Of a DNA stretch of 64,000 nucleotides, positions 24,861 through 26,728 are shown piece by piece (position 1 is the stretch's first letter; each line of letters begins with the position of its first letter). Below the pieces are notes generated by a model that had not been told where the DNA came from, searched no databases, and saw nothing but the letters and a program-made list of their open reading frames with translations. The position numbers and the translations under genes are program-made. Source of the stretch: an uncultured bacterium. GTDB lineage: Bacteria; Patescibacteriota; Microgenomatia; Levybacterales; UBA12049. The stretch is from the NCBI GenBank assembly GCA_963826535.1, contig CAWGXL010000011.1, positions 448,809-512,808 on the forward strand. Reading direction: 5' to 3'.

Positions 24861-25575
24861 GAATACAGTTTGTAGTTGTAAAAGTCGACTAAATGCTGGA
24901 ATACCCGGTTGTATATGTTGATACTTTGGTCTATTATAAATAGAATATGCCAGGTAACAATTCAACATTGAGCGTCAATGAGACGCACCGGACAATCAGC
25001 AGGAAAGACTTGAGCCGAGAAGAACTAGGATTTTTCCTAGCAGGATTTGTTGAAGGAGAAGGGAGTTTTAATGTTTCATTACGACGAAAATCAGACTATC
25101 AAGTAGGATGGCAAGTCGTTATGAGCTTTAATGTTTCTCAAAAAGATCCGACTTTGCTTTTTCAATTAAAAGAGCAATTAGGATGCGGGATAATTAAAGT
25201 ACGAAAGATTGATAAACTCTATTCATTTGATGTAACAAATCCTAAGGATATAATCCAAAGAGTTATTCCATATTTTCAAAAATATCCAGTTCTTTCTGTT
25301 TCTAAACAAAGAAACTTTTTTTTATTTTGTGCAATAGCATATTTAATGGAGAAAGGTGAACATAGAAATTTGATAGGACTTCGGAAAATCCTTGAACTTC
25401 GGGAGATAATTAACGAAGGAAAAGGACGAAAACGAAAATATGAAATAGCAGATGTTTTTCTTGCTTAAGAATCCTCAGAGACTATACGTCGACCCCCGAT
25501 TAAATCGGGGATGATATAGTCCGACCTCATGGGCGACCATGAGACTCTGTAATCAATCAGAGCTTGTAACAATGT
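24861..25575 (+). mobile_element. group I intron at 23S GTAACTAT site (E. coli about 1917) encoding a homing endonuclease
   Basis: Exon sequence stops after gtaactat (24860) and conserved exon text resumes later. Contains the LAGLIDADG ORF. Confidence 0.7.
24947..25468 (+). CDS. LAGLIDADG homing endonuclease (single-motif type)
   Basis: LAGFVEGEGSF motif. 173 aa. Located within the 23S intron. Confidence 0.8.
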   Translation: MPGNNSTLSVNETHRTISRKDLSREELGFFLAGFVEGEGSFNVSLRRKSDYQVGWQVVMSFNVSQKDPTLLFQLKEQLGCGIIKVRKIDKLYSFDVTNPKDIIQRVIPYFQKYPVLSVSKQRNFFLFCAIAYLMEKGEHRNLIGLRKILELREIINEGKGRKRKYEIADVFLA

Positions 25576-25590
25576 GAACTGTTCTAAGGT
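25576..25590 (+). other. putative 15-nt 23S micro-exon AACTGTTCTAAGGTA between two introns
   Basis: Matches E. coli 23S AACGGTCCTAAGGTA (13/15). Flanked by intron-like sequence on both sides. Confidence 0.4.
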
Positions 25591-25842
25591 AACCAACTTC
25601 GTTGCCCTAGGAGTCAGTGTTTTAGTAATCCAACTATTTGCTGGAAAGACTCAGAATCCGACAATACCTGCAGAGGTAATAATTTGTTCGGTGGAGTTGA
25701 TCAGCAGGGAAGATCCCGATTAAATCGGGAAACCCTCAGAGACTATACGTTGGACCCCGATAAAATCGGGGAAGATATAGTCCGAACTCTATAGCGATAT
25801 AGAGAAATATAGATTACAAGGGTCTATAGATTAACATATTGA
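25591..25842 (+). mobile_element. second ORF-less group I intron (about position 1931), 3' region homologous to the first intron
   Basis: A 57-nt block CCTCAGAGACTATACGT..CCCGAT(T/A)AAATCGGGGA.GATATAGTCCGA.CTC occurs at 25472-25528 and 25733-25790. Exon resumes at GCGAAGTTCCTTGTCGGG. Confidence 0.45.
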
Positions 25843-26390
25843 GCGAAGTTCCTTGTCGGGCAAGTTCCGACCCGCACGAAAGGTAGAACGACTGAGTAAC
25901 TGTCTTAATCATCTATCCGGCGAAATTGAGATGGCTGTGAAGACGCGGCCTAGGTATACATGGACAAAAAGACCCCGGGAGCTTTACTGTAGCTTGGCAT
26001 TTGCAAGCTCGTTTTAATTGTTTAGAATAGGAGGGAGACTTCGGTCAACAGTGAAATACCTCTCTTTGAAATGAGCGAGCATCACTTCTAGCCGCATAAA
26101 AATACGGCAGAGGGACATTGTCTGGTGGGCAGTTTTACTGGGGAGGTAGACTCCTACAACGCAACGGAGTCGTGCAATGGTTGGCTAATCTTGAATGGAA
26201 ATCAAGATGATAGCATAAAGGCAAAAGCCAGCTTGACTGCGAGACCCACAAGTCGAGCAGGTACGAAAGTAGGCCTTAGTGATCCTCCGATGCTTGGTGG
26301 CAAGCACGGAGCTTAACGGATAAAAGCTACCCCGGGGATAACAGGCTGATCGCATCCAAGCGTCCACAGCGACGATGCGGTTTGGCACCT

Positions 26391-26728
26391 TAAGTAACAT
26401 TGGGGCGCCTATAGAGCAATCTGTAAGTCTGGTTATTCAATAACGCATTTAGAGAGTGCGGTGAATAAAAATACTAGTCAAAATCGGTGAATACCATTGA
26501 TATGAACAATTAATGGTTAATACCGAGGTTCTGTAAAGCAGAATGATCTTTATGATACTGCTGGCAGCACCGTATCGACTTTTATGTTCAGTTAATATGG
26601 GCATAAAGAGAAGGGGCTTTTGTTCCCGATTTAACGGGGCAAAAAATTATAGTCCTTCTAAAACACTAGCTCCTTTAGCAATAGAGGATGAAGGTATAGT
26701 CAACGCGTTTGGTAACAAACGAATAGAG
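26391..26728 (+). mobile_element. ORF-less intron at 23S position about 2449 (between GGCACCT and CGATGTCGGCTCATCACATCC)
   Basis: A 338-nt non-rRNA insertion between two perfectly conserved exon blocks. Confidence 0.55.

Follow-up and report, generated by a model that had tools for sequence, protein, structure and literature searches.

The window, by which we mean the whole 64,000-nt stretch of DNA that was analysed, carries a 23S rRNA gene with a gene for tRNA-Ala(UGC) directly 5' of it and a 5S rRNA gene following it (Table 1). By its Rfam match, the gene encodes a bacterial LSU rRNA of full length; it spans 4434 nt, of which 3129 nt remain once the introns are removed. Insertion sites were mapped by MAFFT alignment against E. 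coli rrlH, which revealed three large insertions, after E. coli (Ec) positions 1917, 1931 and 2500. These are referred to below as intron 1 (L1917), intron 2 (L1931) and intron 3 (L2500). The borders of all three introns were placed by the alignment and by reading the sequence. The gene also contains one intervening sequence (IVS) at helix 45, where the tip of the helix is replaced by extra sequence with a long stable stem, as is characteristic of helix-45-type IVSs (positions 23895-24135 fold into a single long stem, -76.3 kcal/mol, z = -7.2). RNase III probably cuts this insertion out, leaving the ends unligated. Known IVS sites have been described for CPR 23S genes (PMC11270868).

Table 1. 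Features of the 23S rRNA locus in the window.
Feature	Position	Strand	Basis or remark
tRNA-Ala(UGC)	22312..22385	+	directly 5' of 23S gene
23S rRNA gene	22701..27134	+	Rfam LSU_rRNA_bacteria, 2055 bits, model positions 1-2925
Intervening sequence, helix 45 region	23922..24108	+	after Ec1160 and Ec1181, ~166 nt extra
Intron 1, group I at L1917, 716 nt	24861..25576	+	follows U24860 (U1917), ends G25576
Internal guide sequence of intron 1, 5'-ACAGUU-U-GUAGUU	24865..24877	+	read from sequence
LAGLIDADG homing endonuclease gene, 173 aa	24947..25468	+	ORF list; Pfam PF00961
Exon AACUGUUCUAAGGU, 14 nt, 23S 1918-1931	25577..25590	+	alignment to Ec1918-1931
Intron 2, ORF-less group I at L1931, 251 nt	25591..25841	+	Rfam Intron_gpI 72.4 bits, E 2e-16
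Internal guide sequence of intron 2, 5'-AACUUCGUU-GCCCUAG	25595..25610	+	read from sequence
Intron 3, ORF-less group I at L2500, 338 nt	26391..26728	+	follows U26390 (U2500), ends G26728
Internal guide sequence of intron 3, 5'-ACAUUG-GGGCGCC	26397..26409	+	read from sequence
5S rRNA	27213..27331	+	context, Rfam

By their guides, terminal G and covarying cores, all three insertions are genuine group I introns, as the original prediction held. The 5' exon ends in U at each site, where this U forms a wobble pair with a G (U24860.G24872, U25590.G25604 and U26390.G26403). The splice-site U.G is found in 23/24 homologues of intron 1, 8/8 of intron 2 and 26/26 of intron 3, and the terminal omega G is present in all three introns of the window (G25576, G25841 and G26728). 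The guide of each intron pairs with the final 6-7 nt of the 5' exon and with the initial 6-9 nt of the 3' exon, and these pairings with both exons fix the junctions at U1917^A1918, U1931^A1932 and U2500^C2501 (the caret marks a splice junction). Each intron has a P3-P9 core with a P3/P7 pseudoknot, supported by covariation in 24, 8 and 26 homologues of introns 1, 2 and 3, respectively. Since P3 and P7 form a pseudoknot, separate bracket types were used for them in the pairing counts. For each intron the observed proportion of paired cells was reached by 0/500 shuffles, and slid controls gave 27-47%. Against the Rfam Intron_gpI model (RF00028, gathering score 50 bits), intron 2 scores 72.4 bits, while introns 1 and 3, searched alone, remain under the gathering score at 39.6 bits (E 2.6e-8) and 29.5 bits (E 8.5e-6). 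The model contains neither an ORF in L6, as in intron 1, nor the P2.1, P7.1 and P7.2 insertions of intron 3.

Intron 1 has an IC1-like architecture in which P2 is absent, and its Rfam match covers the 3' core. Pairing across the 24 homologues reaches 97.8% of cells, versus 27-40% in slid controls, with compensatory changes in 23/48 pairs; the covarying helices include P3 (24884-24889/25488-25493) and P7 (25478-25484/25517-25522). In P1, GUAGUU of the guide pairs with exon AACUAU, including U1917.G (97.2% of cells paired), and in P10, read in the window only, ACAGUU pairs with AACUGU of the micro-exon. The start predicted for this intron was correct; its end lies at 25576, not 25575. Intron 2 is IC1-like as well and, as claimed, has no ORF. 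Its eight homologues give 94.2% pairing (33-41% slid), compensatory changes in 35/73 pairs and 100% pairing in the P3/P7 pseudoknot. P1 joins GCCCUAG to CUAAGGU with U1931.G and one A x C mismatch (89.5% paired), and P10 joins AACUUCGUU to AGCGAAGUU of the 3' exon over 9 bp (94.4% paired versus 28-59% slid). Stages in the loss of an endonuclease gene can be seen at L1931, with an intact 134-aa ORF in one relative (L010), a truncated one in another (L017) and none in the window.

The third insertion had been described as an ORF-less block of 338 nt near position 2449. The length and the absence of an ORF were confirmed, and the insertion was placed at E. coli 2500, within the domain V central loop. 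Homologues at L2500 were taken from 26 metagenome contigs in which both exon flanks are readable, and all 26 introns end in G. The fold is of IA type with P2, P2.1, P7.1 and P7.2, and shows 90.7% pairing versus 41-47% slid and compensatory changes in 40/76 pairs. P1 forms between GGGCGCC and GGCACCU, with U2500.G and one conserved A x C pair, and P10 between ACAUUG and CGAUGU of the 3' exon (6 bp; 98.7% paired versus 11-57% slid). The fold that Rfam assigns to this intron, in which P8 is long and, like P3, mismatched, was rejected in favor of the covarying P7.1/P7.2 IA-type fold, in which P3 is CUAGU/ACUAG and P8 is UCCUUU/AGAGGA. Also rejected as the 3' strand of P7 was the first of two UAUAGUC copies (26648-26654), which in homologues belongs to the 3' side of P7.2. 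Position 2500 was not found in the text or supplement of Tsurumaki 2024 (PMC11270868), whose numbered sites include 23IS9-11. A literature search for "L2500" introns gave no match under that name; archaeal LSU/2500 introns were found by position.

Intron 1 contains an intact ORF whose product is the single-motif LAGLIDADG enzyme that had been predicted. The protein matches Pfam LAGLIDADG_1 (PF00961) at 84.7 bits (cut-off 23.1, E 9.5e-24) over one stretch per chain, residues 31-130 of 173. Its motif, LAGFVEGEG, aligns to GFIDAEGSF / GFVSGDGSF of I-SmaMI and has E where the final D of LAGLIDADG stands; in this enzyme family the acidic residue at that place is catalytic. In a PDB comparison the protein resembles each half of I-SmaMI and I-OnuI, as well as the single-domain enzymes 5gkk and 3e54. 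Homologues occur in 27 relatives, with identities of up to 84%, and the exact sequence had no match in public assemblies. The ORF begins in the P5 extension, covers P5' and P4' as well as the P6 5' strand, and has its stop 4 nt short of the P6 3' strand. The P5 extension that holds the start codon is specific to the window and two relatives (L002 and L003), and inspection by eye revealed no obvious ribosome-binding site upstream of the start. The enzyme, presumably a homodimer, would cleave intron-less 23S DNA near position 1917 and thereby drive homing. Its candidate target would be the intron-less L1917 site, GGCAGCAGTAACTAT^AACTGTTCTAAGGTAGCG. The CPR enzyme I-ShaI (site 23IS7) cleaves its own insertion site and dimerises (PMC11270868).

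Introns 1 and 2, originally placed in the neighborhood of 1917 and 1931 and now located directly after these positions, leave only a micro-exon between them. This had been given as a 15-mer at 25576-25590. The 15-mer AACTGTTCTAAGGTA is actually located at 25577-25591, and a length of 15 nt is obtained only if an ambiguous A is included, A25591 and A25842 being interchangeable by sequence alone. Given the group I rules of a U at -1 and a terminal intron G, the exon comprises 14 nt (25577-25590) and intron 2 extends from 25591 to 25841. The exon consists of the 3' strand of helix 69 and positions 1925-1931. Its nucleotides 1-6 pair in P10 of intron 1 and nucleotides 8-14 in P1 of intron 2, with zero overlap, so that folding and splicing of one intron should not depend on the other, whichever comes first. 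A twintron is an intron inserted within another intron, the inner one being removed first. The arrangement had been called twintron-like, but the likeness is limited to the close proximity of two introns. Twintrons are nested, whereas these introns are adjacent, with 14 nt of functional rRNA between them. Both are complete, with P1-P9 cores and guides of their own, and relatives exist that have the L1917 intron without the L1931 intron.

Relatives were scored by exon-motif searches; a global MAFFT alignment of 8-kb loci misplaced insertions in many of them. The L1917 and L1931 introns occur as a tandem pair in 9 of the 20 scorable relatives, and two relatives have all three introns. At L1931, 11 relatives have a precise empty site and nine have the intron; at L2500 the corresponding numbers are 11 and three. 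The closest relative (L005, 91-97% identity across the 23S exons) has the L1917 and L1931 introns and an empty L2500. Introns 2 and 3 may have lost an endonuclease gene or never had one, and would persist by vertical descent.

The region 24861-25841 might instead be a single long intron in which the 14-15 nt "micro-exon" is a chance resemblance, given that the proposed exon is very short and undetectable by BLAST-type searches. The probability of this is close to nil. The 14-mer aligns with Ec1918-1931 and contributes one side of helix 69 (the 3' strand), where it is compensatory to the upstream exon (AGCAG/CUGUU here, GGCCG/CGGUC in E. coli). The same 14-mer is present in 22/22 relatives where it could be located, and in 11 of them, which have no second intron, it directly abuts the downstream exon (AGCGAA). 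Both flanking introns have a complete covarying P1-P9 core and their own P1/P10 guide. Helix 69 (intersubunit bridge B2a) is essential for the ribosome, and loss of 1918-1931 would remove part of it. The alignment, the empty sites of the relatives and the covariation of both introns refute the single-intron reading, and the short piece is a true exon, as first proposed. It is likewise exceedingly improbable that the 338-nt block at L2500 is a lineage-specific expansion segment that remains in mature rRNA, or else an IVS of the RNase III type removed unligated, even with an Rfam score below the gathering score and a helix-45 IVS in the same gene. The U2500^C2501 site lies in the single-stranded loop of the peptidyl-transferase center and not at a helix tip. 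The block is preceded by U at -1 and has a final G, its contiguous P1 and P10 guide is paired across the 26 homologues, and its group I fold is complete, with the P3/P7 pseudoknot, IA-type P7.1/P7.2 and compensatory changes in 40/76 pairs. Relatives, the closest one among them, have a precise empty site here, and archaea have IA3 introns at LSU/2500.

Two further alternatives accept that the introns are real and concern their origin and their activity. Introns 1 and 2 do share the 3' block that was originally noted, although its length is 59 nt and not 57 (88% identity, 52/59). Since they also have almost identical P8 hairpins in the window and the same architecture, intron 2 might have arisen recently from intron 1, whether through ectopic reverse splicing or through a duplication, with the ORF lost afterwards. 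However, the block is catalytic core, and comparing introns 1 and 2 from one genome gives essentially the same core identity (0.77) as comparing them across genomes (0.75), with no sign of concerted evolution within a genome. Beyond the core the two introns are unalignable, L1931 introns of relatives (L010) carry their own, different LAGLIDADG gene, and a published phylogeny (PMC1995217) resolves L1917 and L1931 introns as two old, distinct clades. A recent derivation is thus very improbable. The shared block is family-level core conservation and not a recent duplication, nor does it tie the two introns of this genome specially to each other. It is also quite unlikely that at least one intron, most probably the ORF-less L1931 or L2500 intron, does not self-splice and is kept in the rRNA or depends on a host factor. 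Introns 2 and 3 each have an A x C mismatch in P1, the L1931 homologue in relative L006 ends in A instead of G, and there is a bacterial precedent in the L1931 intron of Simkania, reported as unspliced in mature rRNA (Everett 1999, by its title as cited in PMC11270868). On the other hand, P3, P4, P6, P7 (G-C after the bulge) and J8/7 are invariant or compensated in all homologues, the terminal G and P10 are intact in the window, and the P1 mismatch is common to most homologues and thus tolerated. Insertions of CPR bacteria are absent from transcripts according to Brown 2015, as related in PMC11270868.

Under the preferred reading of three self-splicing introns, each would excise itself by two-step, guanosine-initiated transesterification with ligation of the exons. 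The predicted spliced junctions are UAACUAU^AACUGU, UAAGGU^AGCGAA and GGCACCU^CGAUGU, and the joined exons would read ...GUAACUAU^AACUGUUCUAAGGU^AGCGAAGUU... and ...GGCACCU^CGAUGUCGG... The ligated product would be a contiguous rRNA of ~3.1 kb that is then cut at the helix-45 insertion. Hairpins of the form (C)CCGAU-N2-6-AUCGG(G) are found seven times in the window versus 0.23 expected, six of them within the 23S gene, where three cap exon helices and the other three cap P8 of intron 1 and both P6a and P8 of intron 2. They may be a coincidence of stable hairpins; that they form a lineage-specific recognition element, e.g., for a host cofactor of rRNA maturation or splicing used by introns and rRNA alike, is improbable.

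Similar layouts are known from other organisms. The 23S gene of Synechococcus sp. C9 has group I introns at L1917, L1931 and L2593 (Haugen 2007, PMC1995217), those at L1917 and L1931 being IC1-like with P2 absent. Like the gene in the window, it is a bacterial 23S gene with three group I introns, and its first two sites are identical to those described here, which results in the same 14-nt exon. Both have single-motif LAGLIDADG enzymes with ORFs reaching into the ribozyme core. However, all three introns carry endonuclease genes in Synechococcus sp. C9 and only the L1917 intron does so in the window, where L1931 is a 251-nt minimal ribozyme, unlike its ORF-bearing counterpart. The third site also differs, being L2593 there and occupied by an IA-type element at L2500 here. 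For CPR bacteria, 23IS6 (1917) and 23IS7 (1931) have been reported as hot spots of insertion, 222 ORF-less group I introns are known from 23S genes, single-domain LAGLIDADG_1 enzymes predominate, and multiple insertions per gene are common (Tsurumaki 2024, PMC11270868). The CPR insertions (Brown 2015; Tsurumaki 2024, PMC11270868) come from the same bacterial group and sites, include the helix-45-type IVS and show no substantive difference from the window. Structures and guide sequences of individual introns, which are not part of PMC11270868, are provided here for three.

In Coxiella burnetii, Cbu.L1917 and Cbu.L1951 surround a 34-bp exon (Raghavan 2007, by its title as cited in PMC11270868). 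On this description the second site is 1951 as opposed to 1931, giving an exon of 34 bp instead of 14 nt, and one intron has no terminal G, which all introns of the window possess. The endonuclease gene of Coxiella lies in the L1951 intron (PMC1995217 Table 1) and that of the window in L1917. Archaeal group I introns of subgroup IA3 occupy LSU/2500 (Nawrocki 2018, PMC6125680), the same position as intron 3, and their subgroup is consistent with the P7.1/P7.2 fold. Compared by description, the archaeal introns are ~770-820 nt long and presumably ORF-bearing, whereas intron 3 is bacterial (CPR), 338 nt long and ORF-less. The micro-exon arrangement had been considered unusual. With Synechococcus sp. 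C9 (PMC1995217), the CPR hot spots (PMC11270868) and the nine relatives, the intron layout, including the 14-nt exon, is already documented, common among relatives and ordinary.

Overall, we put at about 0.9 the probability that the host is a CPR bacterium, Microgenomates / Levybacteria-like, whose 23S gene holds, along with a helix-45 IVS, three mobile group I introns, independent of one another, at L1917, L1931 and L2500. The CPR origin claimed earlier is supported. What is gained is mainly of value for annotation: three introns of a CPR 23S gene now have exact borders, guide sequences and folds backed by covariation. Callers of rRNA genes and phylogenetic pipelines must splice out such introns, and a 14-nt exon escapes BLAST-type aligners. 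Small ORF-less IA-type introns at L2500 are widespread in metagenomes, and the Rfam model misses this family at its gathering threshold. In Microgenomates, the L1917/L1931 tandem and the 14-nt exon between its introns recur and are inherited.

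The 23S rRNA gene in the window is 4434 nt long, and 3129 nt remain when three group I introns are removed. Pairwise alignment with E. coli rrlH placed these insertions at sites L1917, L1931 and L2500 (introns 1, 2 and 3; E. coli numbering), and all borders were re-read directly. The original prediction of three group I introns, of which the second and third lack an ORF, is supported by covariation, by guide sequences and by a U before and a G at the end of every intron. Its third site (“about 2449”) was misplaced, as the alignment puts this insertion after position 2500.

Features of the 23S rRNA locus, with window coordinates
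Feature	Position	Details
tRNA-Ala(UGC)	22312-22384	Rfam; identity by ARAGORN
23S rRNA gene, complete bacterial	22701-27134	Rfam, 2055 bits
Helix 45 region insertion	23922-24108	~166 extra nt, AT-rich (rrlH alignment)
Intron 1, after Ec1917	24861-25576	716 nt; guide 5'-ACAGUU-U-GUAGUU; P1 with 5' exon AACUAU, P10 with 3' exon AACUGU
LAGLIDADG ORF (intron 1)	24947-25468	173 aa; one LAGLIDADG_1 domain, 84.7 bits; motif LAGFVEGEG
Exon between introns 1 and 2	25577-25590	14 nt
Intron 2, after Ec1931	25591-25841	251 nt; guide 5'-AACUUCGUU-GCCCUAG; P1 with 5' exon CUAAGGU, P10 with 3' exon AGCGAAGUU
Intron_gpI match	25581-25804	Rfam, 72.4 bits; sole intron match over gathering score in window
Intron 3, after Ec2500	26391-26728	338 nt; guide 5'-ACAUUG-GGGCGCC; P1 with 5' exon GGCACCU, P10 with 3' exon CGAUGU
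5S rRNA	27213-27331	Rfam
Hairpin CCGAU-N(2-6)-AUCGG	22990-23001, 25496-25508, 25716-25728, 25757-25769, 26928-26940, 27025-27036; 42310-42322	

In separate searches at permissive cut-offs, the 3' core of intron 1 (39.6 bits, E 2.6e-8) and intron 3 (29.5 bits, E 8.5e-6) matched Intron_gpI under the curated threshold, and we therefore applied comparative analysis. An endonuclease-protein scan of representative genomes gave 27 loci, mostly with Patescibacteria/Microgenomates titles (Levybacteria, Gottesmanbacteria, Woesebacteria and others) and six with Gammaproteobacteria, Saccharibacteria or unspecific bacterial titles. For intron 3, scanning metagenomes for a conserved string of 19 bases yielded 33 contigs; in all 26 with both exon flanks readable, TTGGCACCT and CGATGTCGGCTC directly flank the element, whose last base is G. 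Structures written from the window sequence were then counted on the homologue alignments. Paired cells made up 97.8% for intron 1 (24 homologues; 27-40% in slid controls), 94.2% for intron 2 (8 homologues; 33-41%) and 90.7% for intron 3 (26 homologues; 41-47%), with compensatory changes in 23 of 48, 35 of 73 and 40 of 76 pairs, respectively. For each intron, none of 500 shuffles reached the observed pairing, and each of the three alignments shows 100% pairing in the P3/P7 pseudoknot.

Introns 1 and 2 share an architecture without P2 and with an extended P5, a GCGA-capped P9 and P9.1, in agreement with the IC1-like, P2-less introns described at L1917 and L1931 (PMC1995217). Intron 3 has a distinct fold of the IA pattern, with a GNRA-looped P2, P2.1, and P7.1/P7.2 between P7 and P3'; archaeal IA3 introns are recorded at LSU/2500 (PMC6125680). 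This ORF-less L2500 family is widespread among metagenome contigs (33 exact matches to the 19-base core string) and, given that the window copy falls under the Rfam gathering threshold, such introns are likely under-annotated.

In each intron, one uninterrupted guide sequence pairs with the exon on either side. Homologues of intron 2 have P10 paired in 94.4% of cells and those of intron 3 in 98.7%; for intron 1, P10 was read from the window sequence only. Because the guide pairings and the U-before and G-last rules fix its borders, the exon between introns 1 and 2 is 14 nt long (AACUGUUCUAAGGU, 23S positions 1918-1931). The following A is ambiguous at the sequence level; if the U.G and terminal-G rules hold, it is part of the intron. 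The 15-mer originally predicted, with coordinates correct within one base, sits at 25577-25591. Sequence comparison identifies the 14-mer as a real exon. It aligns with E. coli 1918-1931, and in helix 69 its positions 1920-1924 (CUGUU) pair with 1906-1910 of the upstream exon (AGCAG), compensating the E. coli GGCCG/CGGUC. An identical 14-mer occurs in 22 relatives, all in which it could be located, and continues straight into AGCGAA in the 11 without intron 2. P10 of intron 1 takes up six of its bases and P1 of intron 2 another seven, which suggests that the two introns can fold and splice independently. With an rRNA exon between them and separate guides, they are a tandem pair and not “twintron-like”, as had been proposed. 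In one relative (L006:4601-4842) the L1931 intron ends ...ATATTA right before AGCGAA, and its terminal base is thus A, not the canonical G. This may reflect an assembly error; an intron without terminal G reportedly has a precedent in Coxiella.

The predicted LAGLIDADG gene of intron 1 is borne out by its single domain, and the protein is 64-84% identical to relatives from the 27-locus scan. Its matches include both halves of I-SmaMI and of I-OnuI, monomeric enzymes with two domains each, as well as the full-length single-domain rRNA-intron enzymes 5gkk and 3e54. The protein would homodimerise and cut the intron-less site; both activities were shown for I-ShaI, a CPR enzyme of the neighbouring hot spot (PMC11270868). 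The ORF starts in the P5 extension, runs across P5', P4' and the P6 5' strand, occupies the P6 loop and stops four bases 5' of the P6 3' strand, an overlap with the ribozyme core like that seen by Haugen et al. (PMC1995217). The P5 extension (24900-24990) of the window and two relatives (L002, L003) is unlike that of all others in the L1917 alignment (L004-L027), and only in these three is the N-terminus lengthened by an ATG placed ~14 codons further upstream.

Of 20 relatives in which L1931 could be scored, nine carry an intron there as well as at L1917, separated by the same 14-nt exon, and 11 have a precisely empty site. Together with Synechococcus sp. C9, where one 23S gene holds L1917, L1931 and L2593 introns (PMC1995217), this gives no support to the view of the micro-exon arrangement as unusual. 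L2500 is occupied in three relatives and empty in 11. Two relatives (L003, L007) have all three introns, like the window; in L005, the closest by 23S exons (91-97% identity), the tandem pair is present and L2500 is empty. The L1931 intron is ORF-less in the window and seven relatives (242-278 nt) and ~600 nt long in L010 (4611-5212) and L017 (836-1433), which encode an intact 134-aa LAGLIDADG ORF (WWIVGFVDGEGCF) and a shortened 80-aa version, respectively. Intact, shortened and absent ORFs are the expected snapshots of endonuclease-gene decay. The predicted 3' block common to introns 1 and 2 is present, at 59 rather than 57 nt (88% identity), and corresponds to the P6'-P7-P3'-P8-P7' core. Recent duplication as its source is rejected, since L1917 and L1931 cores from different genomes (identity 0.75) are as similar as those from one genome (0.77), as expected of family-level conservation. 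Five loci titled “uncultured Gammaproteobacteria” (L015, L017, L023, L025, L026) carry a CPR-type L1917 LAGLIDADG gene whose product is 65-72% identical to that of the window, and 23S exons of L017 and L023 are 82-83% identical to the window; judging by these sequences, the bin labels are probably wrong.

The hairpin CCGAU-N(2-6)-AUCGG occurs seven times in the window, against 0.23 expected by chance. Six copies are in the 23S gene, where three belong to exon helices, one forms P8 of intron 1 (also found in many L1917 homologues), and two form P6a and P8 of intron 2. The helix-45 intervening sequence folds into a single long stem (-76.3 kcal/mol, z = -7.2) and is presumably excised by RNase III, which would fragment the 23S rRNA. 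In the rrlH alignment, E. coli positions 1679-1699 and 2134-2158 (the latter in the L1-stalk region) are missing near 24635 and 26043, which fits the reduced ribosomes on record for CPR. Rfam found no 16S rRNA within the 64-kb window, where only tRNA-Ala(UGC) precedes the 23S-5S pair; the 16S gene is thus unlinked or more than 22 kb distant. Two more tRNA-Ala genes (CGC and GGC anticodons; 44297-44368 and 44474-44545) lie ~100 nt apart, remote from the rRNA genes.

All three introns would be expected to splice. CPR insertions are reported to be absent from transcripts (Brown 2015, as cited in PMC11270868). The Simkania L1931 intron, according to a title cited in PMC11270868, is unspliced, and we therefore keep a small probability that one ORF-less intron is defective or reliant on a host factor. 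The available portion of Tsurumaki et al. 2024 (PMC11270868) reports insertions in 82% of CPR 23S genes, hot spots at 1917, 1931 and 1952, a count of 222 group I introns lacking an ORF in 23S genes, a predominance of single-domain LAGLIDADG enzymes, and intervening sequences of the helix-45 type; position 2500 was not identified among its numbered sites. A title cited there describes a 34-bp exon flanked by two introns in Coxiella. The window arrangement does not depart from the picture given by Tsurumaki et al., Synechococcus sp. C9 and Coxiella, and its introns exemplify a phenomenon that has been described before.
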